Shown: positions 4,646 through 34,739 of the stretch, piece by piece
How the letters are laid out: each line of letters starts with the position of its first letter
How positions within the stretch are numbered: the first letter of the stretch is position 1
Assembly: GCF_037042905.1 (NCBI RefSeq)
Contig: NC_087251.1
Location: 12,464,001-12,528,000, forward strand
DNA from: Lytechinus pictus
Taxonomy: Eukaryota
DNA: 64,000 nt
Direction of reading: 5' to 3'
Program-made: the position numbers and the translations under genes
The notes under the pieces: model-generated
Told to the model about the DNA's origin: nothing
The model's input: only the letters and a program-made list of their open reading frames with translations
Databases searched by the model: none

Positions 4646-4739
4646 CAGTAAAGTAGATGGGGAAATGTGGGGATTTTCATATGTGCATTTCATATGGGCA
4701 TACCCAGCTTATTCCCACCTGGTACCCATTTGATTTGTC

Positions 4740-7190: not shown

Positions 7191-7287
7191 CCCCCTTGCA
7201 TGTTTTTCATTTAATTTTCTTTTTATTTGTATAGTCCAATTCACCGTACCGGTACCAATACCTGTTCTATCCTTGACATTCACAAAA

Positions 7288-7403: not shown

Positions 7404-7489
7404 GTTTGTGGTGGTATTTCAGTTCTCAGCTGCGCCTTTGCGAACGCTGTCGCTAGTCATGCTAGTCTAGTCGCGAGCCGGGCCCGGTC

Positions 7490-8024
7490 TAACCCAGAGA
7501 GCTCCGAGCTCCCGCCCGCTGCGCGGGCGGGAGCCCAGAAGCTTACCGTGTATTTTACCATTGTCACCGGACTAGGGTGATTTATGGTCTAAATATTTCT
7601 CCAAATGAATTGTGAAAACAGAAAGTATACAATTACCACGATTATATGGATGAAGGTCTAACGAGTGGCAGATTCCTGACATCTGGGCACAGTCTGGAAC
7701 CTCAAAAAAACGAAAAGTTCTCTCCTTCTACCCCGTCTCGATCGGCCATTTTTGTTAAAAATCGTAACAAAATGGCCGATCGAGACTGGGTAGAAGGAGA
7801 GAACTTTTCGTTTTTTTGAGGTTCCAGACTGTGCCCAGATGTCAGGAATCTGCCACTCGTTAGACCTTCATCCATATAATCGTGGTAATTGTATACTTTC
7901 CGTTTTCACAATTCATTTGGAGAAATATTTAGACCATAAATCACCCTAGTCCGGTGACAATGGTAAAATACACGGTAAGCTTCTGGGCTCCCGCCCGCTG
8001 CGCGGGCGGGAGCTCTCTGGGTTA
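7490..8024. mobile_element. Near-perfect 535-bp palindromic MITE with 9-bp TSD (MULE-like)
   Basis: TAACCCAGAGAG...CTCTCTGGGTTA; ~265-bp arms with a short loop near 7760; GGCCCGGTC at 7481-7489 and 8025-8033. Confidence 0.85.
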
Positions 8025-8060
8025 GGCCCGGTCCAGAGTAGAGCCCGCCACTAGAGGCAT

Positions 8061-9104
8061 GGGGCCCGTTTCTCAACACATGGACAAGTTAGTCATATCT
8101 TACTATATCCACCAACCACAGAGTTAGTTCCAATCTTACTAAACCTGTTTCTCGAAAGGCTTCCTAACTAGAATACCTTGATATCGATACTATCGGTAAA
8201 AAGAGCAGACGAGACGTAGCCTTAGTCACAAAATTGCATAATTTTCAAAAAGAAAAATTATGACAAAATTGCAAATATTATGATAGATTGGGAAATAAAT
8301 CTTTTCAAAATAATAGCACAGGTGAATTATGCATCATACATACTTAGACCATGAAGACTGAAGCATTCAATTGCAGAGAAAATTAAATTATGAATAATTC
8401 ATTTCATGACTAAAAAATCACTTGTGGACGTTGAGATGGGTACCCCCGGGATACCCAATTTTAATAGTTTACGAAAGTAAACCATAACGATTTTCTTTGT
8501 AAAATGATGATAATTATACGGATTTTTACGATTTCAAACGTCATCAAAATATAGATTAACGATACATTTTTAATCATTGATACCGAAAGATACGATATTG
8601 GACAAATTATATGCATGCATAAATTAGAGATAGAATTCATCCAACTGTTAATAGGGGTCTGAAAACAACAAATACGAGTTCAGTTATGGATGGCCTGACG
8701 TGGTAGAATCTTTATCGATTAAATCATTTTACTATTTCAAAATGAATGGTTTTGTGGCATTTACCAACAGTTTTTATAGTTTCTTTGTATTACAATTATC
8801 ATTGAATGCATTAACCCACTTGTTTTGTGATGTAATTTCAACCTCTATGATTGATTATGTAAGATTGTAATTTTAAAATTTCTAGGCACTTTCGCATGTC
8901 ATAGACATAGTCTACCCACGTGATGCCACTACGTCATTAAGAAAGAAGTTATGACAGGTTCGGAGGTGTCATAAATATTTAGTGAGGTTGTTGTACCCGA
9001 TCTTGGTAAAGAAGGCTTCGTGAAACGGTTAGCGGACAAGTAGCTCACTATCTCCGATTTAGTCAAGAAGTTAGACTTATGACGGTGTTGAGAAACGGGG
9101 CCCC
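8061..9104. mobile_element. Non-autonomous DNA transposon (PIF/Harbinger-like TIR)
   Basis: GGGGCCCGTTTCTCAACAC ... GTGTTGAGAAACGGGGCCCC. Confidence 0.6.
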
Positions 9105-9205
9105 AGGGTTTTGGCGGCGACAGCTCCCTGCCCCCTGCATGCCCTGGGGCTGGGTTATTAGCCTACTAACCTTGTACTAGTACTACTAGTTTGAGTGGGT
9201 TAGCC

Positions 9206-10099
9206 TAGACAGCTGGCACTGGCAGCCGTCTGTTTCGAGGAGTTTTTTAACATTTTTATTTTTTAATTTCTCCTCGTACACCGACGGCTCGCTATCGTGC
9301 AGCCACCATTAGGGGGTTAACAATGCAAAATCCCCCCAACGGGGCTCATCGATTTTTGTCTTTATTTCATAAAAATAATAAATATATATAGTGAGTGATT
9401 GTATTACCGACCGGCCTTGTAATTCCGAACGCGCGCATCAGAAAATAATTTCATACGCTCAAAATTTTGCAACATCCAAAGAGAACTTGAATAGAAAGAT
9501 GATAAAAAATGGTCAAAAACACATTTTCAAAGTCTTAATATTCTAAAAATAATAAAATATGGTCATCCGTGATTTTGTTGTTTTCTCAACTTTTCCCATA
9601 GAAAACACACGTTCGGTAATTATGACCAAAATATTTCACATGCGAAGAGGGGTCCGATTGGAAGCTAATAATGTAAAACGGAAAAACGATTTCGGCAAAA
9701 TTTTTACATATTTATATTTTGTAGGTAATTGTGTATTTATGGTGAAAGTTTGGTGAATTTTATGAGAATAATGTGTTTGATATGATTGAATTCATGAAAA
9801 GTGTTCGGTAATACGATCCACTACCATAAAAAGAACTACCAAAATAAAGATTATTATTCTGTTTTGGCCTGAAATGCACCAAAACGGGGAAAATAAACTT
9901 AAAAGGGGGAAAAACAGTGACTTATTTCGGCTGTCGCGCAACTTCACTTCCCTGTTTTATCCGAACTTGATACATAAACATATGGCCATTGAGTCCCCTG
10001 TACAGATCGAGTTAGAACTTTGGTCTCTGTATTTGGTGAGTGGAGCCAACGGAGTTCAGCGGAACAACCAACATAACAGAGACCGAAGCTTTTGGTCTA
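9206..10099. mobile_element. Non-autonomous DNA transposon (TAGAC...GTCTA ends) with a nested MITE at ~9389-9827
   Basis: Homologous, inverted, to 36277-36722; flanking duplication GGTTAGCC; the nested element has TIR core gtattaccga/tcggtaatac. Confidence 0.75.
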
Positions 10100-11579
10100 G
10101 GTTAGCCTAGCCAGGAGGGTCCTGGAGATTAATGTCATATCACTGACATACTTAATCTCCACGGAGCCAGGGATGGGATGCCATTGCTCTACATGCACCA
10201 AGTATTTTGCCAACAATAATGTTGCTCCAAAATACTCTGATTACTGTACTCGTTTTCTGATGGTTTTGAGCCCAAACTTATGTACATGTAGAATAAATCA
10301 TGGGCTACAATACCATTTAGACCTTTTCGCAGTAAAGAGTCATATTTTAAAATAATATTCTAAAAAAACTATTAAAAATATTAAAAGTAAAGGAGCGTTT
10401 ACTCACAGTCTGTTATTGTCGCCATCTTGCCGTCTTTGTTATCGTCGCCTAGCTACAAAACGCGTATAGAGGGTGACAATATCATGAGCAGTGCTAACTT
10501 AGATTTTTTTAAATACTTGCATCAGCCAATAAATATCATGAATCTTACCTTAAATTTTATTTTAAGCTAAGAAAAAGAAGAAGAAAAAAAAAAGAGAGAC
10601 ATTAAACCAGCTAGGGTTGTAAGTGTTTGCACTGTTATAGTTTGCACACTAAGCATTTTGATGATTACTCACAACTAGCCTAGTTATGTACTGTAGGGAA
10701 ATGGGACTTCCGGGAAAGGCTAGCGCTACAGCTATGGTTGTGTCTGAAGAGTTCTACTATCATAAGTGTTATATTTGTTGTTTACCTAAAACTATCCTGT
10801 TTGAAGTCTTGTTGTTTCTCCTGGTTAATTCTGGCCTTTTCAGGGTATCTTAGTTTGCTTCAGACACGATGTTTGTTGTTTACTTATCAATTAATATTGA
10901 AAGATTCATCTCTTAAAACCAATAAAATATTGTGAAATGCACAGAGTTAAACCTAAAAATGCAAAAGAACAAAAATCCTAATTTGACTTAAATTGACAGT
11001 TTGAGAGAGGGGTCTTTGGACACGCCCGAGTGCTTTCTGAAATGATTTTTCATCTTCAAACTGAAGTCAGTTTGAAGCCTTATAATTACCCTTTATTTTG
11101 ATACTAATTTGTCACTGTGTTTGAAGAGCATTTAAGTGAATAAATTATAAATGATTGTAAAAAATCAGTTCTGATTACAGGTGTACCCAAACTTTTGACT
11201 GGTACTGTATATTCACAGAAAAGGGGCACTACGTTGACTTGGGGTACCATACCGAACAGTGCCACTTTTTTTCAACAGGAGACAAATCTGTGTAAATCTC
11301 GTTTTGCTAACTCTTTTCCTTGGACCTGGTCCTGATCATTGGGATAGCTTTCATGCTTTTTTTGTAGCTTTTGAAGAGTAAAAATAATTCATGAGGTCCT
11401 TGTCTATTGCTTGTAATACCACCTAACAATATTGCCAAGGTTTGCCGATAAAACACACCCACCAAATGTCACCTTCTCTGAGATTTCTATTGTATTATTT
11501 TCTTCAAACAAGTGGTAATTGGCACTGGGTTGAGTATCATCCTGTTTTAATCAAATATTTGTTGAATTAATTTGACAAA

Positions 11580-11840
11580 CAGGGGCAGATCCAGGATTTT
11601 CCCAAAGGAGGGGGACACATTTTCCTGAGGAAAATTTGACAAGCAAAAAAAAAAGGGTTTTCAGAATTTAAGGTCATTTCGTCCACGAAAAATTGTAAAA
11701 GCAAAAAAAAAGTCCTCGCTTTCAAAGGGGGGGCACACTTGTGTTAAAACGGCAAATTTACATTACAAATTTTGATCATTCCTCTAAAGGGGGGGGGGGG
11801 GGGGGTTCACGGGCCAGATGTGCCCCCCGATCTGCCAGTG
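11580..11840. mobile_element. hAT-like MITE
   Basis: caggggcagatcc ... gatctgccagtg; flanks ttgacaaa/ttgaaaaa match 7 of 8. Confidence 0.55.
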
Positions 11841-12088
11841 TTGAAAAATATGTTTGTTATGGAAAATGTAATGATTTTTTTTAACCATACACCCTGCTGA
11901 ATGAATATATTTTGACAAATCGTATCTTCATTCACGTCACATTTTCATTCATATTATAATTGAAGGCTTGAATATTTGCATTGATCAAGTATTCATTGAT
12001 ATTCAACATATTTGTTTTTCCCATATAATTAGTGCTTACAATAGGCACTCCCCCTGATTGATTTTATTGTGTCTGATTTTTTTATCAG

Positions 12089-12231
12089 ATCATACGCCAC
12101 ATCCCAAAGAAGTAATGATTTTGATGTGTGTATCGTTGGAGGTGGGATAGTTGGTCTTGCAACTGCTCAGGAGCTGATCTGGAGGCAGCCGAATCTTAAA
12201 CTTGCCGTAGTGGAGAAAGAGTCTCAACTTT
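12089..12231 (+). CDS. L2HGDH: L2HGDH exon 2 (FAD-binding GxGxxG motif)
   Basis: tttatcag| acceptor; SYATSQRSNDFDVCIVGGGIVGLATAQELIWRQPNLKLAVVEKESQL; T|gtaagt donor. Confidence 0.96.
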
Positions 12232-12251
12232 GTAAGTATCACTTATATCAC

Positions 12252-13265
12252 TTTTTTATTATATGCCCGACCTGGATGGGAAGTATCATGGTATCACGCT
12301 CGGTGTCCGTCCGTCTGTCCGTTAACGTTTCCTTGTAAGTTTTTATGCAATAACTTAAGTTTGACTTAACCTAGGCTTATATAATTTGGTATGTATGATA
12401 CTAGTATGGATTCCAGGAAGCCTACTGATTTGTGGTCCAAAGGTCAAGGTCACAGTGACATGTTTTCATCTTACCCTTCTGCAGTCCTTGTAAACGCGAT
12501 AACTTTAGTTTGACTTATCCTAGGCTCATATAATTTGGTGTGTATGATACTAGCATAGATTCCAGGAAGCCTATTGATTTTGAAGTCAAAAGGTCAAGGT
12601 CACAGAGACATGTTTTCATCTTACCCTTCTGAAGTCCTTGTAAACGCAATAACTTCAGTTTAACTTAACCTAGGCTCATATAATTTGGTGTGTATGATAC
12701 TAGCATAGATTCCAGGAAGCCTTTTGATTTTGAGGTCAAAAGGTCAATGTTCAAGGTCACACATTTTTTCCTCTTACCCCTCTGAAGTCCTTGTAAACAC
12801 GATTACTTTAGTTTAACTTAACCTAGGCTCATATAATTTGGTGTGTATAATACTAGCGAGAATCCCAGGAAGCCTATAGATTTTTAGGTCAAAAGGTCAA
12901 ATGTCAAGGTCACACTGACATGTTTTCATCTTACCCTACTGAAGTCCTTGTTAAGTGATAACTTTACATGTGGTTTGACTTAACCTAGGCTCAAATAATT
13001 TGGTGTGTATGATACTAGCATAAATCCCAGGAAGCCTTTTGATTTTGAGGTCAAAGGTCAAGGTCACGGTGACATATTTTCATCTTACCCTTCTGCAGTC
13101 CTTGTAAATGTGATAACTTCAGTTTAACCTAACCTAGGCTCAAATAAATTGGTGTGTATGATACTAGCATAGATCTAAGGAAGCCTATCGATTTTGAGGT
13201 CAAAAGGTCAATGTTCAAGGTCACACTTACATGTTTTCCTCTCACCCCTCTGAAGTCCTTGTAAA
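12252..13265 (+). mobile_element. Helentron-associated (HINE/Tsp-like) element with ~6 tandem ~150-bp units
   Basis: T-rich 5' end and GTCC/GTCT microsatellite (12304-12322). Units are marked by taggct at ~12372, 12521, 12671, 12824, 12986 and 13135. Confidence 0.7.
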
Positions 13266-14375
13266 CCCTATGGAATTTCAACAACACTACAACAGACCTC
13301 CCAACATGTTTAATATGATTGATTGATTTGAATTTGATATATTTCATTTCTCATGATAATACACAATGCAAAATGAATACATTCAAACAAACAAAAACTT
13401 AATGGATTTAATCACATAGTAAACAGGTATATAAATGTGAAATTATAAAAATGATAAGAAAAATATGTGAAAAAACAAAACGCTAAAAGGAGCTTGAAAG
13501 AGGTTATCCCAGTTGTACATTATAATTACAGAATACATATGCATAAAGAAGCATATAGAAAAGCACAAATAAAATTTATGAAGTAACTTGCCCAAGAAAA
13601 ATCCTTAACAACTACCCCACCCCCCCCCCCCCATTTACATAACCAAACATTGCATTACTTCCATCTAAAATGTAGCTGAAATTATATCTTTTAATTAACT
13701 TTTGAATGCCGATAAAAATAAGCATTGTTTCATCTCCCTGGGAAGTTGGAGGAAAGAATCTGTGTTTTGACAGTCAAAGCATGGTTTCTCTGAATTGTCT
13801 TGCTTATCCCACTGCAAATTCCTATTAGAAATGCTGATTTTTTTTCTTTGTGTATTTTTTAAAATATAGATAATCCTTAATTATCAGTTTGAAAGGTTGG
13901 GAACTCTAACATATAGTACCAATACTTCATCTAAAATTGATATACCGGTACTCAAGAGAAGAGTTCTTGAAGAAAGAATTCATAGCAGATGAGTCTTCTT
14001 ACAACACTCTTTCTTGAGAACACTTCTCTTGAAAATGTGCATTGTAGATGAAGTACCGGTACGGTGACACTATGTATCTTAAATTTGGGGGTTAGAGACA
14101 AAAAATCAGTTTAAATTCAAAGGTAATAGATCAGTTCAAAATCATGTCTTATTTCGAACGCTCTTCTTGAGGAAAAGAAACCACTGTGTCATATCAATTG
14201 CGAGACATTCTCACAAGATAGAGATCATTTGCTACCATGATCATTTCTCACTCATAATACTTCTTCTTTGTCATCTAAGTAGCAACGTAAATCAGTGCAT
14301 ATCCTTTATTTGCAAGGTTACTGACGGTATGCCAAATCAAAACATTACTTTTCTATATTTCAATTGATCATTTAA

Positions 14376-14958
14376 AGGAGAATGAAACTCTTGGAGCAAG
14401 TTAGCTTTTGTGAAAGCAGAAAAATCAAAGAATAAGATCAACAAAACTTTGAGTAAAATAGGACTAGCAATAAAAGAGTTATGAGCATTTGAATGTCGAG
14501 ATCACTAATGCTATGGAGATCCTCCCATTGGCAATGCGACCAAGATCTGTGATGTCACACACGTACAACTCTCCCATTCGGACACTGAAAATATACCCCA
14601 AAACATCTCTTTTTGCTCATTCTAATCATATGACAAACGATTCATCAATGATATAATGTTGTGAAACCTCTGTACTTGTCATCTCATAAAGAAAACACCT
14701 AACCTTGTGATAGACTCTATAAAAGTGAGAATATAAGTGAAATAAGTACTAAAGTAATGAAGGAGTTGTACGTGTGTGATATCACAGATCTTGGTCGCAT
14801 TGCCGATGGGAGGATCTACATGGCACTAGTGATCTCAATATTCAAATGCTCATAACTTTCTTATTATTCATTCAATCTTCCTCAAACTTTCAACAATATG
14901 TTTCTTTGATTTTTCTCTTTGATATGGATTCAGCTAGTTTCGAGGGTTTCATTCTCCT
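14376..14958. mobile_element. Palindromic Kolobok-like MITE
   Basis: TTAA|AGGAGAATGAAAC ... GTTTCATTCTCCT|TTAA. Confidence 0.75.
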
Positions 14959-15276
14959 TTAATTCAACCATTTTTTGACAGGGCTTTATCAGTTTTTATC
15001 ACTCTGAACAAAACTTTTATTGGTGTATTAAAATTGATCATGCAAGTGAATTGTTCCAGGTATCAGTCAAGTTGTTTTTTTGTAATATAGATAGTGGGTT
15101 CTAAAAAAAGGGAAACTAGATTTCCTGGCAAATATGTCACATTAATTCCTTCATGAGATATCAATGTTATTAGGTAAAGATTTGTTTCACTATTTTTATT
15201 CCATTCACATTCTATTCATATTATACTCAGTACGATTTAATTGTAGAAAATTGTGAATGCACAGATACGCACTATA

Positions 15277-16051
15277 CAGTGCGTCCCACAGAAAACGAAA
15301 CCGAGATTTACAGATGATTTATCATGCCTTAATCGCAATAATAGACAAATGACCTGTCATTGTAAAGTATAGGATCTCCTCTTTCATTTGAAATAACTTA
15401 GGTTATTTGTCATTCATGCATGAGTGAGCAAAAACAATTTGAAGAAAGGAAACCAAAATGTTTTTTCACATTTTTAAAAAGTTCAATATCTGTTCTTTAA
15501 TTTGATACCTGAATTACAGAAAACGGTCAAGAAATAAAAAAGTTTTTGTTTGTTTGAAATAAGGCTTGAATTCCAATAATTTCATAAAGTGAAGAGGTTT
15601 TACAGGATAGCTTTTAGACTTACCACTCCGTTTTGTTGACGATCAGCCATGCAGAAAGTCTTGTTAACTATGCGATTGCTTCAGTGGGGAACTGGTGAAA
15701 ACACGTATGTTTCTTGAAATTATTGAAATACAAGCATTGTTTCAAAGAAACATAACTGTTATTTCTTGACCATTTTCTGCGATTTGGCTATCAAATTAAA
15801 GAGCAAATAGAACTTTTTAGGCATGTGATTTTCTTTTTGAAATTTTGATACCCCCCGCCAAATGACTTATTGCTATCATTTCTTCATATTGTTTTTACTC
15901 ACTCATGCGCGGACGAAAAATCTTGAATATTATACCAGCTAAAAGAGGACATCTAAGCTTTAGAATGATAGGTCATTTGACTATTGTATTTGTGATTAAG
16001 TTATGATAAATCATCGCTAAACCTCGGTTTAGTTTTTTGTGGGATGCACTG
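15277..16051. mobile_element. Tc1/mariner-like MITE with TA TSD
   Basis: TA|CAGTGCGTCCCACA ... TGTGGGATGCACTG|TA with long imperfect TIRs. Confidence 0.75.
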
Positions 16052-16235
16052 TATAATAATGACTTTTCTCTTGATATGACACCTCAATGTGACAGCACAG
16101 AAAGTATGCACAAACCAGTAAAAATGAATGGATTTTCCAGTATTAAAAAGCCAAATAAGAAATATTTAGACTTCTTGGGAGAGGAGACAAAAAAATGATA
16201 ATCGTATCTCTTTTCATGAATTTTGAACTTTACAG

Positions 16236-16387
16236 CTTTGCATCAGAGTGGTCACAACAGTGGTGTTATCCATGCTGGGATTTACTACACCCCTGGGTCT
16301 CTGAAGGCTAAACTCTGTGTAGAAGGTTTAGAATTGGCCTACAAGTATCTAGATGAGCATAATCTTCCCTACAAAAGATGTGGAAAG
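16236..16387 (+). CDS. L2HGDH: L2HGDH exon 3
   Basis: tacag| acceptor; [50 protein letters not shown] contains the hallmark HNSGVIHxGIYY motif; AAG|gtatac donor. Not in the ORF track. Confidence 0.97.
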
Positions 16388-16703
16388 GTATACTGATGTT
16401 AATTGTTTGAGCTAAAATAAATTTGTAAATTAGACTTCATGGTCCAATTATAGAAAACTGCCCCCCAAAATGAAAGACTCAATTGCTTCATGTGATTTAG
16501 AATGTATTCTATAATTCTTTTACAAAAAATATACTGTAAAGCTGACCCATTCTAAATTGATGTTTTAAAAAAGAAAATTTGATCAAAATGGCTATACCAG
16601 AGGCTTTTGATTATAAGCTGCAACAAGGTACTGAATCATGAAGCTACATAGTGCTATTTCAATTCCATGAAATTATTTTACTCAAAACTTTGTTCCTGTC
16701 CAG

Positions 16704-16835
16704 CTTATTGTGGCACGTAATGCAGAGGAAATACCAAGACTAGATGCACTGCATGAAAGAGGACAGAAAAATGGTGTGAAGGGACTAAGGATCATGAATT
16801 CAGATGAGATCAGAGAAGTGGAACCATATTGCAAG
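16704..16835 (+). CDS. L2HGDH: L2HGDH exon 4
   Basis: tccag| LIVARNAEEIPRLDALHERGQKNGVKGLRIMNSDEIREVEPYCK |gtacaa; 132 nt, phase 0-0. Confidence 0.96.
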
Positions 16836-17755
16836 GTACAATTTTCTACAATGCTATGAATCCTGCATTTCAACAAGAATCATTTATCATAGTGTTGGTG
16901 ATGCAATACAAGTAATCTTAGGGCCCTCTTACACACTTGTTGAAAGTGGATTGAGGCCAGCCTCACTCCACTGTCAACCTGTGTGTAACAGATCTCTCTT
17001 ATCAAAATGCAGGACTGAGGCCAGCACAAAAAATTTGGACACCTTTTTATGTGGTGTGAATCCGGCCCAAGATGAGAGGGGGATGGGGTAGGGGCATTAT
17101 GTATATGTTTAAGAGGAATGAAGATAATATGTTGGTTTTCAAATTCAAATTCAAATTCAATTCGGTTTTATTAAACAATACTCATCAAAAAGTCAGAAGA
17201 CTAACAATGTGAGTTTACATTTTTTTTAAATACATAACAAAGAAATAAATAAATACATAACATGCAGTGACCATTAAAGAAGAAAAAAAATATACATTAT
17301 GTTTAAAATGCAATAATAGTATTAGAAGAAATAGAATGAGCAGATGCATGTAATAAGACAGATTAAATTTATATATAGGGGCCTATATAAAAAAAAGCAG
17401 GTGAGGAGCAAGAAAGGGGAGCAAGAACGGCAAGAGTAAGCCTGTGAAAAGGTGAGAATAGAGAGAGGGTGTAGCAAAATATAAAGGAAAGAGGGGAAAA
17501 AGGAATGAAGGAGGAAAAAAGAAAGACCCACTAGTAAACAATAAATTGCAGATTACAAATATAATAATTATGTGTAACAAAAAAAAAGTGTAATTATTTA
17601 ATTGTTTTTCAACAGGTAACATGTAATATGGAATAATGGAAGGTTTCTATACATGTACAAATGTGCTATATGTGCTTTTGCATGTTCTGTATGAAAGGGA
17701 GGGTATTTATATGTGTGTTTATTAAACTGATATGAATTTTCTGCTTTTACTTAAG

Positions 17756-17918
17756 GGTGTAAAGGCCATCCATTCTCCAAACACTGGGATAGTTGACTGG
17801 GGCCAGGTTGCACAATACTATGGCAAGAACTTTGAGAGGCTTGGAGGCAGTATCTTCACCAACTTTGAGGTTACAAACTTTGCCATGACAACAGAAGGCA
17901 AAACTGGCTCAAAAGAAG
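17756..17918 (+). CDS. L2HGDH: L2HGDH exon 5
   Basis: ttaag| GVKAIHSPNTGIVDWGQVAQYYGKNFERLGGSIFTNFEVTNFAMTTEGKTGSKE G|gtaaca. Confidence 0.95.
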
Positions 17919-19749
17919 GTAACAAGTATTATTTATATAGAGCATTTTAGCGATACATTAAAAATGAATATCCCATAGGCTCCTGTACAAAATTTGCCAT
18001 TGAATATGAGACCGTATTCAACAGTCTAGTGCGCATGCGCGAATGTATGAAATATACAATGCGTACAACAATGACAGCAGTACGATGCGCAGCATAGAGC
18101 ACAATTACACTTAAACTTTGGTAAATTAGAAATCTGCCCCCTCCCCCTTTGATTTTCCTGATTTTTTTTTCATTGCAACTATTCTGCTTTCAAGATTCCT
18201 GCTGGTATAATTCAATATTTATTATTTTGTTGTTTCCAAAAGTAAAAGGTTTAACAGTCACTTTTTTCTAAATTATTTAAATGATTAAAAAATGTTTACT
18301 CTTTATTCATATTTTCCCCTGACAAAAGTTTTTATCTTTCCAGGCAATCATACTTTCGCAATGATCAATAAATGCATGTTTGAATTGTTTCAAAAATCAG
18401 TTATAGATGATGGTTCAAAGTTTTGGTTCAATTTGAATAATATTATACTATCTTAGAAGGCTGTTGTAGTGCTCTTTGGCTACACTGTCACCTAAACTTA
18501 TAAATGCCAACCAAGGAATTTTTTCTGCCTAAAATTGGTCACTTTTATTCTTTAACACAAATCCAAACCTATTTCAAGGCAATGTCGACTTTCTCTCTCA
18601 CATCGCTATCATAATTTCATGAAGATTTCATCTTGAATGGGAGAGGCTCACTTCATTATAACATGAAGGTATTCATTCTGCCTGTGATAGAATTCACTGA
18701 AAGAATCTATCTGGGTCGGCTTTTATGATTAAAAAATCTGAAGTTAGCGGGAAATTAAATCTGATAAAACAATATTCATAGCAGGATAATATATCTGTTG
18801 TATTTTAATACCACATTGCCTACTGGATTTGGATGGTCCCTAGACAAAGCCTTTGGGAATGACAGAATTCACCAGTCAAAGGGTGAATGAAGATGCAATC
18901 AATTGCATGCCTACTCTCCTCATATCATGAGGGAATTATTCAATTCAATCTTTCTTTCAATTTTCTCATTGCGATTTCTTTCAAAACTCCCTTGAATCTT
19001 CGAGATGATCTACTATCAACCTATGAATTACCAATAGAAAGGGAGAGAGGGGGTCGATTTATAAAACTTGAAGGTTGATAATATAATGATTTTACAAACT
19101 TTGTATTTTCTTTCATAAAGCAGTTATACTTGAGAAAAAAATTAGCAGTAGATATTAAACAGTGGGTACTATGGATAATTCTTGAATATCTCATATTCTA
19201 TTTTGCTTTTATTCATAGCATGTTAACCCAAGGAATAGTATCGTCATTAATTTTTGGGTTGAAGTGTTATGATGAACTTGATATTCATGTATTTCTGTAA
19301 TTTTGAATATCACTTTATGTGGCAACTTCCTTCCACCCTGCTAACTTATAATTTTGGACTGTAGACTATTGCGCTGTTGTAATTCAACAAAATACAAGTG
19401 ACAAAACTAATATTTCTTGTGAAAATGTAAGTACATTTTGTCAGTTTACTCAGAAATTAATGCAAGATTGTGATATTATATCTGTCATAGGTGTTGGATG
19501 CATTTCAGGTTCAAAGATAATATACAATATGCCCCGTGTAAAAAGTATGGAGAAGATACTATACAAGTATATTGATTCATCCCATGATCTGGACCAAATT
19601 TAGATTGTCCTAGCTCTAAGTTTGACCTATCATCAGAGCTAAACGATGTCTGGATAGGCTGCACATGGCTGAAACTAATTTGATATCTTAATATCTTGCT
19701 ATCTACTAATTGTACTTATTATTGTTTTTGTGTTTATTTATTTGTCAAG

Positions 19750-19787
19750 GTTTACAACATCCCGTGACCCTGCAAGCCAAGTCTGGT
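19750..19787 (+). CDS. L2HGDH: L2HGDH exon 6 (38-nt micro-exon)
   Basis: gtcaag| GT TTA CAA CAT CCC GTG ACC CTG CAA GCC AAG TCT GGT |gtaagt = (G)LQHPVTLQAKSG. It bridges phase 1 to phase 0 and resembles vertebrate GMQYPIVIKNTKG. Confidence 0.85.
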
Positions 19788-19829
19788 GTAAGTATACAGG
19801 AGATGTAAAGAAATTTCATTTTTTGCAAT

Positions 19830-20360
19830 ATTTATACCCATTCCAAACAAAGTTTGAAGGGGGTATTTTGGAATGTGGACGGTTGTTCAGTCAGGTGGTC
19901 TGGCAATTGGTCCATTCCAAAATCTTGCAGTTGGAACGACTTCCTCAGTTTGTATTTTTAACTAATTGTCATGAAATGTGGAACACACATTGTTTTGGGG
20001 GTAAAGATGTGCAAGACACATTTTTCACATGTGTCAGAAATTGCATTGCCATGGTAACAATACTTTGGCCAAAATTAGGTTAAAGTTTTACAGTTCAAAT
20101 TACTTCCTCAGTTTTTTTTTACTCAATTCTCATGAAATTTGGCACATACGTTGGTCTTTAAGAAAAAATGTGCAAGACATATTTTTCACCTGTCTTGTAA
20201 ATTGTGTTGCCATGGTTAGAATATATCATGGCCAAAAAGCCAGCAAATTCATTGCAGATCAAACTGCTTCTGTTTTTGGCCAGATTTGTCAGAAACTGTG
20301 TTGCCGTGGTAATGACAGTACGGGGGGGGGGGTCTTAATCATCAATGATCTTTTAATTAT
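19830..20360 (+). mobile_element. HINE-like element with gttgccatggtaac-type subrepeats
   Basis: tttataccc 5' end, short tandem units each ending in ttgccatggt, and a G-run near the 3' end. Confidence 0.5.
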
Positions 20361-20636
20361 TTTAAACAACCTTGCATGAGTTTTGCCATAAAGCTCGAAA
20401 CAAATCTATTCAAGTAGCTCTCCATTTTTCTGGAAGTACAAAGAAACTACGTACAGCTGCATTGGTGTGTTCTAACTGCCAGGTTCATGGATAACTTGAC
20501 AAGTGATTTTTTTTTTAACTACTGTTAGTATTTCTTTCTGAAGGTTTCCATGGCGAAGAAGAATAGTGTAGTAGGTTTCACGGTACACCATGTATTCTTT
20601 CTTGGGCATATGTTGGTCCTGAAAAGGACCACCCAA

Positions 20637-20678
20637 TCTCGACGTTTCGACAAGTGTGTTCTTGTCGTCCTCAGGAGA
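20637..20678 (-). ncRNA. Second copy of the minimal hammerhead ribozyme (inverted arm)
   Basis: Exact reverse complement of 23533-23574. Confidence 0.85.
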
Positions 20679-20953
20679 ATGAGCAAAGTTTGTAAAAGCA
20701 GGCCTTATATACTCTGTCGAAGTGCCGTATACACGGTATCTCGCAGGGTACATGTCTCTGATTGGCTAGATAGGTCACATGACATCCACATGTGCGGACG
20801 TGGGTGACAACACACAAATTGGGCGCGCAAAACCAGCGACGACCGGAAATTGCTGTCAGTTATCATTCCCGCTAGGATTAGCATGAATGACAAAAGTCAC
20901 CACTTCCGCCCATACACTGCAGTGCTCACACGTGTGTGGAATGTCCGGGTAGG

Positions 20954-21370
20954 CTAATTAGGCAAATTAGCCTCTTTGTCTAGAACGGTGAGCCAGATAT
21001 TGCTAAGTTGGAGGCCGCTGTCTTGAGGAACAGTGTTATGTTCCTCAATCTCCAACGCTTCTCTGACTCTCCGTTGATACCAGTAGGGGACACGGGTGAC
21101 CAGTCTACTCTCATCCCAAAGAATCCGGTGATCATGTGTATGGGCATGATCGATGATTGCAGATTTCTCCCTCTCGTCTCTCCTACCATGGGCCTTGTGT
21201 TCCTTAATCCGAGTGTTAAAGGAACGACCCGTCTCTCCGATGTAAACTTTACCGCATTCACAAGGAATTCGGTAAACTCCAGGGAGGTCCTTGGAGTTGC
21301 GCTTGTCCTTATGTGTAGTGAGGGCAGATTGAAGCTTATTTGAGGAACTATGACGAACCTCAATGTCGGC
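20954..21370 (-). CDS. Intact PLE GIY-YIG endonuclease domain (138 aa, no start codon) in the inverted arm
   Basis: My translation: ADIEVRHSSSNKLQSALTTHKDKRNSKDLPGVYRIPCECGKVYIGETGRSFNTRIKEHKAHGRRDEREKSAIIDHAHTHDHRILWDESRLVTRVPYWYQRRVREALEIEEHNTVPQDSGLQLSNIWLTVLDKEANLPN*. It has the GVY...YIG motif and candidate catalytic R (TRIKEH) and E (REALEI). Missed by the ORF track. Confidence 0.92.
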   Translation of the reverse strand, partial: ADIEVRHSSSNKLQSALTTHKDKRNSKDLPGVYRIPCECGKVYIGETGRSFNTRIKEHKAHGRRDEREKSAIIDHAHTHDHRILWDESRLVTRVPYWYQRRVREALEIEEHNTVPQDSGLQLSNIWLTVLDKEANLPN

Positions 21371-22975
21371 CGAGACACAACCGCCAGCCGAGACACAACC
21401 GCCAGCCTAGACACAACTTGCATCCTAGCAAAACTGTTGTCAACCTCAGTCAACGTCAGTTGTCGGAGAATGAACATCAGGTCCTCTCATTGGGACTTAA
21501 TTTTGCTATGGCTCCTAAGCAAGTAAACCGAAAAGAATTCATCCAGAAGATTGAACCCAACCTCAGACATCTTACTCGGTCTCAATCAGACACAGTGCGT
21601 ATCCAAATCTCACAAGTACTGACTTCGGTTAACCCACCTCGGCCTAACCTCACCAAAGCCGAGAAGTCAGGCCTTGCTAGTCTCCGAGAGGATAACTCCA
21701 TTCATATTCTCAAGGCAGACAAGGGTAATGCTACTGTTGTGATGGACAGATTGGATTATGAGACCAAGGTTCAAAGACTACTGGATTCGGGGACCTATAG
21801 GAAACTTCCTAGAGACCCCACACCGGCCATCGAACGTAGGGTTAATGATAAGCTCCTCTCTCTCCAGAGGAAGGATGTCTTGTCTAGACCCATTTACCGA
21901 CAACTCCGGAGCTCGTCTGGTCTATGTCCCATAATCTTTGGGCAACCGAAGATTCATAAACCAGACACTCCACTCAGACCTATTGTGTCTACTAGAGGAT
22001 CTCCCACGTACGCACTGGCTCAGCATTTGACTTACATCTTACAGCCTCTTGTTGGTCAGGGCGTGCATCACGTGAGAAACTCTAAACATTTCGTTGAGCA
22101 GATCTGTCAGATGAACGTCTCTAACAATGACCTCCTCATCAGCTTTGATGTTGAGTCATTGTTCACAAGTGTACCAGTTAAGGATGCTTGCGCCATCATC
22201 CTTGAGAGATTGAAATTTGACAGAACTCTCCCTGACAGGACACAGTTGTCTCCTCTAGAGATCCATGACTTGCTTGAGATGTGCCTCAATTCCACCTCTT
22301 TCAGATGGAGAGACACATTCTACAGGCAAACGGAAGGGGCTGCCATGGGGTCTCCCCTGTCCCCAGTGGTAGCCAACATGTTCATGGAACATTTCGAGGA
22401 GACGGCTCTCCAGTCAGCAACCCACAAACCCAAAGTGTGGCTTAGATATGTGGACGACACTTTTGTGGTTTGGCAACACGGTGCTGAGGAAACTAGCAAT
22501 TTCTTACAGCACCTCAACTCTCAACACGAGTGTATCAAGTTCACCATGGAAATGGAGAATGAGGGGTCTATCCCCTTTCTTGATACAAAGATTACGAGGA
22601 CGGCACAGGGATCCCTATCCCATCAGGTTTATCGGAAACCTACTCACACTGATCGGTACTTGAACTATCGTTCATTCCACCACCCATCAGTGCTGAGATC
22701 CATCAACAAGACGTTAGTCAAACGAGCGCATGAGGTTAGTGACCAGATCCACCTGAGAGGTGAGCTTGAGCATATCAAACGTGTTTTGAAATGTAACAAC
22801 TACCCCTCACATAAGATCTGCACTGAGCTTCCCCCCTCGCGGAACCCTCGTGTAGGACAACCCAAGGCGAGAGTCGTTCTTCCATATCTGGGAACAGCCT
22901 CTCACAAAATTCAGAGGATTTTGAGAGAAGCCGACATTGAGGTTCGTCATAGTTCCTCAAATAAGCTTCAATCTG
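21371..22975 (+). CDS. PLE reverse transcriptase (N-terminally truncated; frameshifts at 22975/22976)
   Basis: Open frame with the PLE motifs VVNLSxRxLS...GLNFA, ADKGNATVVMD, FGQPKIHKPDTPLRPIVS, SFDVESLFTSVP, GAAMGSPLSP, RYVDD, IPFLD and VYRKPTHTDRYL. Confidence 0.93.
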
Positions 22976-23446
22976 AGAGACGGGTCGTTCCTTTAACACT
23001 CGGATTAAGGAACACAAGGCCCATGGTAGGAGAGACTAGAGGGAGAAATCTGCAATCATCGATCATGCCCATACACATGATCACCGGATTCTTTGGGATG
23101 AGAGTAGACTGGTCACCCGTGTCCCCTACTGGTATCAACGGAGAGTCAGAGAAGCGTTGGAGATTGAGGAACATAACACTGTTCCTCAAGACAGCGGCCT
23201 CCAACTTAGCAATATCTGGCTCACCGTTCTAGACAAAGAGGCTAATTTGCCTAATTAGCCTACCCGGACATTCCACACACGTGTGAGCACTGCAGTGTAT
23301 GGGCGGAAGTGGTGACTTTTGTCATTCATGCTAATCCTAGCGGGAATGATAACTGACAGCAATTTCCGGTCGTCGCTGGTTTTGCGCGCCCAATTTGTGT
23401 GTTGTCACCCACGTCCGCACATGTGGATGTCATGTGACCTATCTAG

Positions 23447-23534
23447 CCAATCAGAGACATGTACCTGCGAGATACCGTGTATACGGCACTTCGACAGAGT
23501 ATATAAGGCCTGCTTTTACAAACTTTGCTCATTC
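23447..23534 (+). promoter_or_regulatory. PLE pLTR Pol II core promoter (CCAAT, TATA, Inr)
   Basis: CCAAT 23447-23451, TATATAA 23500-23506 and Inr-like TCATTC with A at 23531 (TATA at -31). A mirrored copy lies on the - strand at ~20677-20765. Confidence 0.6.
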
Positions 23535-23574
23535 TCCTGAGGACGACAAGAACACACTTGTCGAAACGTCGAGA
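23533..23574 (+). ncRNA. Minimal type I hammerhead ribozyme in the PLE pLTR
   Basis: TCTC CTGAGGA C GACAAG aacaca CTTGTC GAAA CG TC GAGA: CUGANGA and GAAA core, 6-bp stem II, loopless palindromic stem III (ACGT), UC cleavage after 23570, stem I TCTC/GAGA. Confidence 0.85.
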
Positions 23575-23967
23575 TTGGGTGGTCCTTTTCAGGACCAACA
23601 TATGCCCAAGAAAGAATACATGGTGTACCGTGAAACCTACTACACTATGTTAGTATTTCATTCTTTATTAGAAGAAATAAACTGAAATTTAAGCGCAGGA
23701 TGAACTATCAGTACTTTATTTGTACCTTATTTTTGCAAAGGGATTCAACTAGATTGCAATATATCAGTTGTAAAAAGGAGAAATTATTATATTTTTACAT
23801 TTCTAATAACCAGATTATGAACCTCTTCTGATTGCTTGTGGTCAATGAAAACTGTAAATCCAATATTTAAAATATAGTTATTCAGGGGTATTCAAGTAAA
23901 TTTGGTTAATATTTCAAGAAATATTTGTACAGATTTTTGACCAATGATCCTTGTATCCTCTAAACAG

Positions 23968-24132
23968 AAATCACTGAGATGCAGGTATGTGGTGACCTGT
24001 GCTGGTCTTTACTCTGATCGTGTAGCAGAGATGTCTGGCTGTAGCAAGATTCCAAGGATTGTGCCTTTCAGGGGCGACTACCTCCTACTCAAATCAGAAA
24101 AAAATTACCTCGTAAATGGCAATATCTATCCA
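23968..24132 (+). CDS. L2HGDH: L2HGDH exon 7
   Basis: aacag| [55 protein letters not shown] |gtaagt. Confidence 0.97.
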
Positions 24133-24806
24133 GTAAGTTCATTTTTGTTTCTGAAGTATAAGAAGGTATAGAGGAAGAGGTCGAGAGAGGCAGAGATGGG
24201 CGGATATGGAGGAAGAGATAAAGAGAGAGAGAGAGAGATAAAAGACAGAGAGAAGACTGTTGAGAAGAGAGAGACAGTAAGAAACATGAGACTGAGTGTG
24301 TGTGTTAAAGTTTCATCATATGCTATCTGTTAAATATCCATGTATATCCAGCTACACACAAGCCCAGTTGGAACTATTCAGAGAAATATTATTCAAAAAT
24401 GATACAAATAATTAAACAAAGTTGATGAGAAAATATTCATTATTAAACAATGAGGTAAACTGCCATAAGTATTTATGGAGGCATGCAATAAACTTGCATC
24501 CAAGACATTAAATGTTTGTTTATTTAAGCCAATTTTTCTGAATGAAACCAAAAGACAGATCTATATTTGTCTATTGAAAAATCTACATTGTAATCATTTC
24601 AATGGTATCCCTGTAGAAATTTAGAAAAAAAAGACAAGTCAGATTTAAGGGATCTTTTCATTAATATTGTGACCTATCCCAGAAAAGAATTGATAGAACC
24701 TTCAGCTTTATGAAGGTTTGTGATGAGATTTATATTGTCGTAGTGGTCATTTGTTTATCATTTTCATTACATCAGTGGTATTTCAAAATGGCTTTTTTTT
24801 CAACAG

Positions 24807-24964
24807 GTTCCCAACCCCAAGTTTCCATTTCTCGGTGTACACTTCACTCCTCGAGTTGATGGTAGTATATGGCTGGGTCCTAATGCTGTTCTAGCACTGA
24901 AAAGAGAAGGTTACAACCTTCTTGATTTTAGTTTGAAGGACATGATAGATGCTGCCTCATTTAG
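24807..24964 (+). CDS. L2HGDH: L2HGDH exon 8
   Basis: aacag| [54 protein letters not shown]|gtaagg. Confidence 0.97.
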
Positions 24965-26816: not shown

Positions 26817-27012
26817 GGGTCCCTCTGGAGTCAGAGCTCAGGCACTGGACACAGACGGCAACTTGGTGGACGACTTTGTCTTTGACATCGGAGTTGGTGG
26901 AATAGCATCTAGGGTACTTCACGTCCGGAACGCTCCTTCCCCTGCGGCCACCTCCTCTCTCTCCATAGCCAAGATGGTTGTTGATAAGGTGCAGGACACC
27001 TTTAAAATATGA
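26817..27012 (+). CDS. L2HGDH: L2HGDH exon 10 (last coding exon, TGA at 27010-27012)
   Basis: tacag| [65 protein letters not shown], with the conserved GVRAQA and [11 protein letters not shown] motifs. Confidence 0.97.
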
Positions 27013-30000: not shown

Positions 30001-32093
30001 TAAACAATGACCTCTCAACCATGATCCATGTTGCGTCCGTGAAGGTGTAACAGGGGCTTAACCCAGGGCCAATCCCCTCATCTCCCCTCTCAATCAACCC
30101 CCTACAGTATAACATTTTTGAGTGATGCCTTGCTTTTTCAAGGCAGTAATAAAAAAAGGAAAATCTAGATGTTGATGAAGAGGGGAGCCAGGGGATTGGC
30201 ACTGGGTTAGGGATAAGTAGTCAAGAGGCCCTCTATGTTAGCTTTGGGATAGATGGCTTCTGTACTACTGTATTGGGGGCACTTGATGGATTTGGATGAA
30301 CGTAGTCACCTTATTTTATTATTGTTACTGCACACTGTTGCCATATATTAACACATATTAACTGTATTTGAGAACACAGTACTATAAAACAAATATATAG
30401 GTAATAGCAATGTAAATGATTATATATATATATTTCTCTACATCTGTGTTTAAGGCAAATTTTTTCGTCTTTCGTTGTTCGTAATGCGCCTTAATGCCCT
30501 CTACCTTCGTCTTTACGTCTATATGTGTATTATGACGGAATAAACACATTCATAGACTTCGCCCTTACGTAGGATGCAGGCATATATTTATATATATACA
30601 TATTTACACTATTTTGTGTCATTTGCATATTGGTGTGAGGTTGAGTGTGTGTATTATATTAGGATAGGTACTTGAAATGTCTACAAGAACAAGAATGTAT
30701 TTCCTTTGATTCAAACACACATGCACAAAAGTATTTAATGTTATTTTATTTAAGGAATGTTATGAAATTAGAAAATGTGACCTACATGTGACTGTCTCAG
30801 AGCAATGATAAATTAATTTTGTTGACAATCGTAATATGTTTCTTTAAAAAAAGAAATTTCACCAACTAATTTCATGAAAGATAAGCCTGTAGAAATATCA
30901 TCAAATGATTTTTGGGACTATGTATTTGCATAAGGTAGTAAACTTTGTATGAATTTTGTAACTTTATGCATCACTGTATAAGTTATTGATGTAATGTACA
31001 CTTCTTTTATCAATGTCACATTATTTGAAAAAGAGTGAATTCTGGTAAAATTATGTAATGTTATTAATATGATGCTCTTCTTTAATGAATTACCTTTATT
31101 GTTTCCATTATATATCTTCCTATAGTATCAGAAACTAAATGGCATTTGATAGCTAGTTTACAAATACACACTATGTTCCAGTACAAAATATATAATTGAT
31201 TATGACTTGACTTAGGACTAATCGAGCTCAAAGATATGTAGCCATCTTGTGAAATTGAAACCAAAAACTATGCAGCTCTCTTGTTGAAAAAAAAATCATA
31301 TTTTGGCTGTGTAGATTTATTTATGGATTTGAAGCTCATAATAGCTGTGCCACTTTATTTGTGAAATTTAAGCTGGCAATAGCTGTGTAGTTCTGTGGTA
31401 TTTCAAAGATTCAAGCTCATATATCACTTTTTAGTGATGTATCCATTTATAAGCTGGCTTTATAGTCTTAAGCCAACTCATCATCAATGATGTGTTCGTA
31501 CCTAATCAATCTATTCAGACAACGTGGTCTGGACAAGCCTGTGTATTAAAATTCACAAATGAATATTCACTGAAATGATATTTATGAAATAGATCTAGTA
31601 TTTTCATAAAATCATGTTATTTGAAGTGTACTATAAAGGTCTTGATTTTTTCATGTATGGAATTATCTATGTGCAATGTGTAACATTGGGTCTAATATTT
31701 ATTTCAGGGATAGTACTGCTATTTCCTTTTTAAAATTTGAAATTCAAACTTTAAATTTCTTGTGAAGTAACAAGCACATTCAGTCAACATTTTCTGTGTG
31801 ACACTACTTGAAGTCTTTGTGATTATTATGTGACTTTTGTCATGGTTTTTACACAATGTCATATTGAAATCAGACATTCATGATTGTATATTTATACTGT
31901 GAATGTTACCCACAATTATAATCAGTACTAATTTCCATAATTATAGAAGGGTTGAATTTTATTCAATCATGAAATATAAAAAAACATTGAAAGAAATTAT
32001 TATTTTCAGTGAAGTGCATGATGCAGCTTAATATGGTTATGCTCTGATACTTGAGAAAACATATTTTGAAATTCCTTCCTTTTTTTTACTTAA

Positions 32094-32671
32094 ATGACAA
32101 GTCCACCCGCAAAAAAAGTTAATTTGAATGAAAAGAGAAAATTCCAACAAGCATAACACTGAAAATTTCATCAAATTGGATATAAAGTAAAAAAGTTATG
32201 ACTTCAGTTTAGCTTAGTTTCACAAAAAATTATGCACATTCTGATTGGTGTGCAAATGAGGGGACTGATGATGTCACCCACTCACTATTTCTTTTGTATT
32301 TTATTATATGAAATATGAACTATTCTAATTTACTCCTCATTGTCCTGTAAAACAAAGTTTTATTCCTCCCTAAACATGTGGTATTACCTCTTATGGTTCA
32401 GTCAAGTTGTCCTAAATATCAGATCTGTACAAATTGAAATATTTTGTAGTTCAAACAATAAAAAGCAAAAGAAATAGTGAGTAAGGGATATCATTGACTC
32501 TCATTTGCATGTAACTGTGTTGTGCATATAACTGTTTTGTGAAATGTAAGCAAAAATTCAAAATGTCCTAACTTTCTTATTTTTCATCCAATTTTGATGA
32601 AATTTTCTGCATTTTGCTTGTTTGATTTTTCTCTATTCAAATCAACATTTTTTCTAGGGTGGACTTGACCT
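32094..32671. mobile_element. Kolobok-like MITE, same family as 5378-5970
   Basis: caagtccacc ... ggtggacttg, with shared internal sequence. Confidence 0.7.
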
Positions 32672-34739
32672 TCAAAATATAGCTCATATTCAATACAGGA
32701 AAACTCTTTTCTTGATTTCTGATTGAATATCAGAATAAAATGAAAGCACCGAACATTGGTATTTCATTTATATGTTTGCATGGCAGTTTTTGCTTTTTAC
32801 TCTTCTGTTCCATGTAAATGAATAGAATCGTGTGTTTAAATAATATTGGTAAACCTAGTTGGTAAATGATTTGTTTGGAATTGTACATTATTGTCTTGTT
32901 CATTTTCTACTTTTATACTCAATGAAATTGATTATTAACAAACAGGACTTCATCATTACATTGCAACCAATAATATAAGAAACATTTATTTGATGTATAA
33001 ATATAATCTCACATCTTAGTATCACCTTTTGAAGAATTTGTGCATTTCAAAGTAAATGTAAATTTCTGCTTAATTTTTATTCCAAATAAAGAGGTCTTAC
33101 TACTTTTTGTTGTTGTTTCATTGCATGCTGAGACAAAACATATATTTGTTATGTTTTTATGCCATTTAATGATGTGATAAAAACATCTAACATGACTCAC
33201 AAGTAACTACCTTTAACATTATACTGGAATGAAATGGGCAGTTTGAGTTTTCTAGACATTTAGAAGCAGGGCTATTCTCAGACAGGAATAACAGTGAAGT
33301 TTCATGTTTGTTGTGAAAGTTTGTTCTCCTTTTTTTCTTTTTTTTTTGCATTTAATTTTACATCTGATTAAATATTGAATGCTCTTAAGGTTTATCCAGT
33401 GAGGTCGCTCTATATTAATAATGAAAAACAGAGAAATCATGAGAATAAAATTTTGTGTGCTTCCAAATGTGCTGTGATGTCTCTTAATTCTGTTCGAGTT
33501 TGGTTTCATTTTCCCACTTTGCATTAGTGCTTTATCATGAATACTAAATGAACTAGATATTTATCTGCGCCACTACTTTCTAAAACATGTTGCAGATATT
33601 GTGACTTTGTCTTACTCTAATTGCTAACTACACATTTGCAACAGGTCCAAAATGTCAAAAATACAGACAAAAGTTTACATGTAGACAGTTGGGACTTCAT
33701 TACTAATGATTTGCTCATGTTCTAGATTGGAATTCTTTTTAAAGTATAGTGATTGAGAGGAAAGCACAGTTGTCAAGACAACATTTACAATACAAAGTCA
33801 AAGAAAGTACCCGATTGAGAGGGGGAAGAAAATAAGGAGAGGATATTAGAAAAAGGATTCAGGAGAGAAGTGATAAAAGATCGGGAAAAAAAGAAAAGAA
33901 AATGATAATGGACAACAAAAAGGAGAACAGATGAGAGAGAATAAATAAAAGAAAGTATAAAAGAATAAATGGATAGAAAGGGGAAAGAAGAGAAAATTAA
34001 GAAATAGAGAAGATATTTTTTTTTTAAAGAAAGGGGAAAAGGTGATCGACAAATAAGGAAAAGAGTAAGAAAAATATTAAAAGTGAAAATAAAATGGAAA
34101 GTTTAAGAGAGCCCGGAAGAGAGATAAGAGGAAACTGGATTGATAACAGTAATCTTTTCATACTCCTCAAAATTCATTATTCTATATGACCTCAGGCTTT
34201 GCTCCATCATAAAAAAAGTTATGAAGCTTCGTACAATTCTTATCCCGTATTGAATTATTCTAATCCCGTATTGAATTATTCTAATCTACAACTCACTTTT
34301 TTCTTGTAATACTAAATCTTCCATACTTTGACAAACTGCAGTTGGGGCTCCGGAGTTAGGGATTGTTGGCAAATATGACATTTACCATAAGATTTACGCT
34401 CCTCTAGCCAATCAAAAGGGATCAAAACAAAATATTGATGAAACGCCCCCACTGGTATCTGCCCCTTCACGATCTTGCTGAGGCAGCTAGGGATTTCCCC
34501 TCTTTCAAGTTTTTCCCAGATACGCCGCATAAATCTTTCAATGGAGAGCCGAATCACTGAGGACTAAAAAAAAAATCGTGGTCACTCTGACTTTTTCAAA
34601 TGAGTGAAAAACACATTAATTGGATAAGTATAGACAAAATATTATCTTCGCATTAAGGTAAGCAATTCATACTATAAAAATAGAGAATGGAGGGCGAAAG
34701 CACAGTTTCTTCGATAACTATATCATTAACAGCGTATGA

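Follow-up and report, generated by a model that had tools for sequence, protein, structure and literature searches.

The 64,000-nucleotide stretch of the Lytechinus pictus genome that was analysed, referred to here as the window, contains at positions 20535-23648 two 3' arms of a Penelope/Poseidon element, which lie head-to-head and are framed by a 12-bp target duplication. The locus is a copy of an active family, and the explanation that we favor, with a probability of roughly 0.65, is an insertion that was dead on arrival, its forward arm having been damaged during or after copying. The copy never had the N-terminus, the start codon or an upstream promoter, and on this account the insertion would have been without function from the outset.

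Structure of the locus

The forward copy occupies 21369-23648, and in front of it lies its own 3' end in inverted orientation (21370-20535); the GC content of the whole locus is higher than that of its surroundings. The original prediction of a Penelope-like element (PLE) with an inverted second end is correct. The AT-rich target-site duplication is an exact 12-mer at both ends, with its left copy at 20523-20534 and its right copy at 23648-23659 (where the first T may belong to the element), and the chance of such a match is ~8e-6 over 49 offsets.

The left arm, on the minus strand, ends in a 28-nt tail (20535-20562) that is found in this arm only. The tail carries the ORF start codon (20551-20549) and the codons METFR, and matches the N-terminus of the sibling protein P0125. 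Beside it lies the inverted 3' untranslated end or pseudo-LTR (pLTR; 20563-20953), in which a TATA motif and a minimal hammerhead motif, with CUGANGA at 20668-20674, were recognized by eye. The remainder of the arm (20954-21370) encodes an intact C-terminal part of 138 aa with the GIY-YIG endonuclease (EN; GVYRIPCECGKVYIG), with no start codon and no promoter 5' of it. Where the cDNA ends of the two arms join, they share 2 bp (21369-21370), and this overlap falls within an 8-bp palindrome (21366-21373).

On the plus strand, an 18-bp repeat of three units (21369-21422) lies at the 5' truncation point. The 5'-truncated reverse transcriptase (RT) frame (21371-22975) runs up to the junction of an 88-bp deletion (22975/22976) and is followed by an endonuclease remnant (22976-23258) with a nonsense codon at 23037-23039. 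The forward 3' end or pLTR (23259-23648) has a TATA motif at 23500-23506, a minimal hammerhead motif at 23537-23570 and a 1-bp deletion near 23464, and it stops at the short end of the family, without the tail. A stub of 70 bp elsewhere in the window (57794-57863) stops at the same short end. The TATA motif is legible in both directions.

The arms align in three blocks (21370-21326/22930-22974, 21237-20749/22975-23463 and 20747-20563/23464-23648) that leave three differences: an 88-base gap (21237-21324, or shifted by one, with a 1-nt microhomology, G), a single mismatch (G at 21175 versus T at 23037, which turns GAG into TAG) and a 1-base gap near 20748/23464. Beyond these the arms are identical, with 1 substitution in 719 bp. 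The original prediction had named exactly these differences, including the loss of the GIY-YIG motif and the shift of frame caused by the deletion, and the alignment reproduces all of them. Its arm lengths of 808 and 719 bp are right for the right arm; the left arm measures 836 bp, given the 28-nt tail. The start points of the arms lie 1.56 kb apart within the element, and both arms begin with an identical pentamer, as do 1.6% of GC-start pairs.

Reading frames and domains

The plus-strand frame (21322-23232, 636 aa) matches RVT_1 with an E-value of 9e-12, and the minus-strand frame (21406-20954) matches GIY-YIG with an E-value of 4e-05 and contains no Met; the domain check on both frames thus gave the predicted RT on one strand and an intact endonuclease lacking a start codon on the other. 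The RT of the forward copy has no frameshift over 535 codons. Its full-length sibling P0125, a protein of 801 aa with 99.4% identity over 530 aa, has RT and GIY-YIG in one frame. By comparison, ~148 N-terminal residues are absent from the frame in the window, which begins at residue ~149, extends to residue 678 and has its first in-frame ATG (21508) at residue 190 of the family protein. The RT predicted to be open is therefore uninterrupted but truncated at its 5' side. Neither a complete ORF with a start codon nor a direct 5' pLTR in front of it is present in the locus copy.

The endonuclease of the inverted arm has 0 amino-acid differences from the siblings P0122, P0124 and P0126. The forward RT departs from the sibling majority at 3 residues (frame residues 64, 495 and 509) and at 2 silent sites; since the source lineage differs from the sequencing runs at a similar density, these RT differences need no second donor. 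The 18-bp repeat has 3 units here versus 2 in both siblings with an intact N-terminus (P0121 and P0125). In another sibling, P0131, the first 14 residues correspond, at the level of the gene model, to an antisense pLTR frame fused to the same 18-bp repeat.

Two cysteines lie between GIY and YIG, as in the CCHH motif (GVYRIPCECGKVYIG), and conserved His residues follow downstream in the alignment; in the available excerpts of PMC8557442, the CCHH motif with two cysteines defines Penelope/Poseidon EN+ elements. P0125 has no CX2-5CxxC zinc-finger linker between RT and EN, which sets the family apart from Neptune and Nematis. By the family-level features tested, the element would be classed as a Penelope/Poseidon EN+ PLE. 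The candidate hammerhead elements at 23537-23570 (CUGANGA, a 7-bp stem II and GAAAC-GUC) were read off the sequence by eye. Rfam yielded 8 matches, none of them a hammerhead and none near its gathering score. Hammerhead motifs in pLTRs have been described (PMC7761336, excerpts). A PDB sequence search with P0125 returned 0 matches.

Host gene and family

The element lies in a stretch that separates exons of a plus-strand L-2-hydroxyglutarate dehydrogenase-like gene. Matches to the host protein lie at 12120-12251, 16226-16390 and 16701-16829 before the element and at about 23986-24133, 24807-24962 and 26821-27009 after it, all on the plus strand; one further exon may lie inside the intervening stretch (16830-23985).

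The nearest named proteins come from Lytechinus pictus, at 98-99% identity, and the family siblings are 98-100% identical, a degree of likeness by which we judge the family to be young. P0128, a member of cluster 1, probably comes from a sister species. Tandem arrays are likely in this family: the locus numbers of P0131, P0130 and P0125 follow one another on a single contig, and the three are probably members of one array.

Family ends in sequencing runs

Four of the 24 listed runs were aligned, over positions 19900-22929 only. Among the loose ends listed (24 of 533 rows), the short family end is represented by 88 and 72 RNA reads and 16 contigs that come loose before 20564, with AT-rich and poorly agreeing sequence; this breakpoint is the position where the right arm ends. 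Further reads (208 and 225) and contigs (18 and 67) run on before 20536. Beyond 20536 the consensus of each of the four runs retains ~9 further ORF letters before it fades, which would place the long end of most family copies up to ~9 nt past the end of the locus copy; the tail of 28 nt found here would be up to ~37 nt in the family. Many of these reads belong to related subfamilies and show a likeness of no more than 90-95%. Depth over the left flank (20405-20505) is 0 in all four runs.

Summed contig depth, which is no measure of copy number, is 4400-21800 over the last 170 bases versus 5-220 over the RT, a contrast that fits heavy 5' truncation. RNA depth over the RT body is 0-3 in run X22 and 0 in run X23, versus 120-150 over the 3' end, in 6% of each run; at this read depth the RT body gives no sign of expression, a result that has no bearing on the locus itself. 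Six alleles common to both arms are rare in the reads, at 20731, 20773, 20854, 20897, 20990 and 21137 (among 40 of 420 rows listed), and point to one source lineage for the two arms.

Search for the deletion in other copies

The original prediction raised the prospect of an EN-deleted, RT-only subfamily. Cluster 1 has 24 members, of which 15 were listed and 13 span the linker; P0121 and P0129 stop before it and were left out. All 13 are undeleted at the breakpoint and 12 of them keep GIY-YIG, so that the endonuclease described as the only intact one is so within the window but not in the family. P0123, as well as P0016 and P0135 from another cluster, are broken by other lesions. The peptide across the deletion junction was found in 0 of the 143 fetched proteins, and targeted searches for the frameshifted tail (69 and 28 candidates, leading to 2 and 5 proteins) returned no protein with the junction, only undeleted or differently broken relatives. 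The locus's own frame, looked up exactly with four start sites, is itself absent from the protein collection, and other deleted copies could therefore be missing too.

The aligned runs likewise show the undeleted form. In run X1, a 308-nt contig with a depth of 50 continues from the RT into an undeleted endonuclease, reaching 73 nt into the stretch deleted here, and depth over that stretch shows no dip in X1 or X3. No 88-base skip occurs among the 15 of 47 joints listed. The joint in X3 extends for 34 letters only, short of testing the breakpoint; the X1 contigs carry a stop at 22723 at full depth and may represent one copy, and contigs in general lose rare variants. An exact search for the junction 28-mer in JGI metagenome contigs gave 0 matches and is uninformative, the collection being unlikely to contain this animal. 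Judged by titles and the beginnings of abstracts, with subscription literature and older work on Drosophila Penelope thinly covered, we found no description of an EN-deleted PLE subfamily or of conversion between arms, which is weak evidence. The proposed subfamily is thus unsupported, and the endonuclease damage looks like a one-off lesion and not a new kind of element.

Formation of the insertion

An inverted truncated copy combined with a one-sided tail is a usual Penelope structure, and a tail at one end that reaches the ORF start is a published signature of this class of PLEs (PMC8557442 and PMC3846280, excerpts). Against the pattern of an inverted truncated copy, a one-sided tail of 30-40 bp and a target duplication, the locus has an 836-nt arm, a 28-nt tail and a 12-bp duplication. 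The tail on the left arm only indicates that the two ends were primed separately. A bottom-strand cDNA begun at the short site cannot template the tail, and an 836-nt top-strand cDNA cannot template the RT body, so two syntheses are needed; self-copying of one cDNA by fold-back is excluded by this anatomy. The original proposal that two templates were joined in one integration accordingly stands as far as two priming events and one integration are concerned.

The favored dead-on-arrival explanation would run as follows. A single integration by a member of a young Penelope/Poseidon family would account for the locus. The element protein, supplied in trans by a full-length copy, would have cut each strand of an AT-rich site in the intron, with a spacing of 12 bases to judge from the duplication, and each nick would have primed reverse transcription on element RNA, presumably of one source lineage. 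Synthesis from the long start site would have produced the tailed left arm of 836 nt, and synthesis from the short start site the forward copy of about 2280 nt. Both cDNAs would have ended early and been joined head-to-head over the 2-base overlap. The 88-bp deletion, the nonsense change and the 1-bp deletion would be lesions of the forward arm that date from copying or repair, or from a later time, and the split of RT and endonuclease between strands would be a functionless by-product. According to excerpts of PMC3846280, internal deletions and stops commonly disable copies, and one derivative described there combines a stop and an internal deletion with inverted pLTRs and a target duplication.

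What speaks against this account is that 3 of the 3 lesions appear to lie on the forward arm (p = 0.25, two-sided), with the polarity of the 1-bp indel only hinted at by the 12 of 30 table rows listed; were these lesions and the differences of the forward RT from its siblings all post-insertion, zero changes in the left arm would have a p of 0.09-0.22. The strongest competing explanation, which we regard as unlikely, takes this asymmetry at face value: the forward arm would have been copied from a donor that was already damaged, for example a unit within a tandem array, and the donor of the left arm would have been clean, with the protein again acting in trans. The concentration of lesions and amino-acid differences on the forward arm is in line with two donors, as are the separate priming that the one-sided tail demands in any case, the likely arrays suggested by P0131, P0130 and P0125, and the predicted dimer that extends both strands in the anole system (PMC11167929), which could hold two RNAs. 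It has to contend with a junction seen in none of the 143 proteins, with targeted searches that yielded only undeleted or otherwise broken relatives, with the lack of such a joint among the 15 of 47 listed and with arms that differ by 1 substitution in 719 bp and have six uncommon alleles in common. The strong form of this explanation, in which the damaged donor spread as an EN-deleted subfamily, has only a very slim chance of being correct.

A second possibility, which we find improbable, follows the proposal made for Adineta Penelope elements and derives the inverted arm from self-priming, or template switching, on an antisense template instead of from priming at both nicks. The 8-bp palindrome at the junction is the feature that underlies the model in the excerpts of PMC3846280, and the shared initial pentamer and the TATA motif that reads both ways could be taken in the same sense. 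Yet arm starts 1.56 kb apart allow no simple fold-back, neither arm holds what the other needs (the tail in one case, the RT body in the other), and in later in vitro work both strands were extended on sense RNA (PMC11167929).

It is highly doubtful that the deletion or the small differences reflect an assembly or consensus error in the 0.7-kb inverted repeat. A CC/CCC difference is a typical long-read error, and the runs neither cover the flank nor span the locus. Such structures are known to trouble assemblies (PMC8557442, excerpts). On the other side stand the exact 12-bp duplication, the family-typical ends, an RT without frameshift and host exons in order, and a collapse of the repeat would tend to make the arms identical.

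Equally doubtful is a more elaborate scheme in which the forward arm derives from an EN-deleted donor spread in trans, a dimer copied two different RNAs, one per nick, and joined them head-to-head in a single integration, and the 18-bp repeat is a recurrent stop-and-join point with P0131 as a second locus. RT skipping during copying, also put forward originally, finds no support as a skip over a hairpin: the deleted stretch with its flanks folds at -29.3 kcal/mol (z -0.88, with 39 of 200 shuffles as good), the predicted stem ends miss the breakpoints and the microhomology is 1 nt. Splicing was rejected since the ends of the deleted piece, CC..GG or GC..CG, represent no intron on either strand.

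Returning to the dead-on-arrival explanation, gene conversion between the arms had been suggested to restore an RT-EN frame. A homogenized copy would still be without the first ~148 residues and the start codon, and so would not be autonomous. The forward end, having neither tail nor ORF start, makes re-mobilization from host pre-mRNA appear unlikely, by analogy with the anole system. A transcript of the locus would be expected to form about 0.7 kb of double-stranded RNA.

Comparison with known elements

Twin priming in LINE-1 offers a parallel, in that both target strands prime and the products form a head-to-head joint over microhomology. A LINE-1 inversion contains an inverted, non-overlapping 5' piece of one RNA, whereas here the 3' end is duplicated.

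A close parallel is PAc, a Poseidon element of Anolis carolinensis, which has the same order of N-terminal helix, RT and C-terminal GIY-YIG, a hammerhead motif upstream of two end sites and an AT-rich target (PMC11167929). In vitro, the anole protein was found to cut as well as extend each of the two strands and to begin synthesis at two sites delimiting the tail, and its use of an RNA requires sequence past the start site (PMC11167929); its long N-terminal helix is predicted to form a dimer (PMC11167929, excerpts). An anole protein, P0097, which is possibly PAc, is 39% identical to P0125 over 804 columns. Its residues 37-40 align with P0125 residues 5-8, where the tail ends, and in PAc an RT start is placed at +111-118 of the ORF, i.e. 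codons 37-40 (PMC11167929). Unlike PAc, the urchin family has its start codon within the tail, on the downstream side of the hammerhead motif, and the locus copy is without the putative dimer region.

An inverted pLTR with a tail is likewise found in Adineta Pen2/Pen2a (PMC3846280, excerpts) and in PLEs generally (PMC8557442, excerpts). Compared with the available description of Pen2/Pen2a, the inverted arm here (836 nt) is long enough to contain the endonuclease in full, a direct upstream pLTR is missing and the microhomology at the deletion is only 1 nt. The EN-minus PLEs Athena and Coprina (PMC8557442, excerpts) also have an RT frame that is not accompanied by a functional endonuclease on its strand. 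As far as that part of the source describes them, they are deep, telomeric clades without EN, whereas this locus is an interstitial, intronic copy with a target duplication, an EN remnant and an intact EN arm, 99% like its EN+ siblings. Non-LTR retrozymes, which are non-autonomous PLE derivatives (bioRxiv 10.64898/2026.07.22.740005 and PMC7761336, excerpts), similarly have a hammerhead motif of the pLTR type and are mobilized in trans; as described there they are short, non-coding and tandem, while the present copy is single and coding and gives no indication of spread.

Significance

The insertion pattern, a truncated copy with an inverted second end, is already described, and the locus, a copy that is young yet dead, belongs to a new member family within the Penelope-type elements. 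As one damaged copy of an active family, it matters little as it stands. Two small leads are the third 18-bp unit at the junction and the antisense pLTR residues of P0131 joined to the same repeat. The locus is useful as a clean genomic case for studying the way in which Penelope inversions arise: its arms are marked, with the tail on one and the lesions on the other, and show two separate syntheses joined. Should a donor with the same lesions be found, this would be direct in vivo evidence that two nicks were primed on different RNA molecules. The family is well suited to a genome-wide test, as it is apparently young, has a full-length 801-aa copy and has a 3' end that is far more abundant than its body.

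Other copies of the Penelope family

At the inversion junction of the main Penelope/Poseidon element (21369-21422), an 18-bp unit is present three times, and the sibling proteins P0121 and P0125 each carry two such units. The extra unit is either a polymorphism of the family or the product of slippage where synthesis stopped. Another sibling, P0131, begins with 14 residues identical to the antisense frame of the pseudo-LTR (23601-23560), and its sequence passes from there into the ORF, likewise at this 18-bp repeat. Judged from the protein itself, P0131 is probably a second head-to-head insertion with the same truncation point as the main element, and it probably precedes P0130 and P0125 at the front of a tandem array.

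The window also holds a 70-bp stub of the family's 3' end (57794-57863), which is identical to the main element at 69 of 70 positions and terminates at the short site, the family 3' end that lacks the 28-nt tail. An 8-bp duplication flanks the stub (57783-57790 and 57862-57869). At its 5' junction, an 8-mer from the left flank (57776-57783) is repeated, in a manner that resembles templated filler.

Among the four sequencing runs mapped, run X1 has a C>T change at position 22723 in all of the contig depth (56/56), which creates a stop in the RT; the dominant family copy in X1 is itself damaged.

Surrounding repeats and host gene

Left of the Penelope insertion, diverged direct repeats of ~161 bp (19919-20312) belong to another multi-copy repeat, since their depth is high in all four runs. 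By blastn, MITE-like self-inverted elements lie at 7480-8034 (93% self-complementary), 49110-49285 (86%), 5374-5974 with 32090-32676 (73%) and 15273-16055 (67%). Tandem arrays with units of roughly 100-160 bp occupy 12330-13266, directly past a host exon, 51438-52508 and 61542-62396.

For residues ~147-197 of the bacterial query, no matching exon was found within 16830-23985; one unrecognised exon of the host L-2-hydroxyglutarate dehydrogenase-like gene may lie in this interval.

Position of the RT start

PMC11167929 places the RT start of the anole element at +111-118 of the ORF. If the anole protein P0097 is PAc, the Poseidon of Anolis carolinensis, its alignment with the full-length sibling P0125 would bring the anole RT-start codons opposite the end of the tail in the urchin element.
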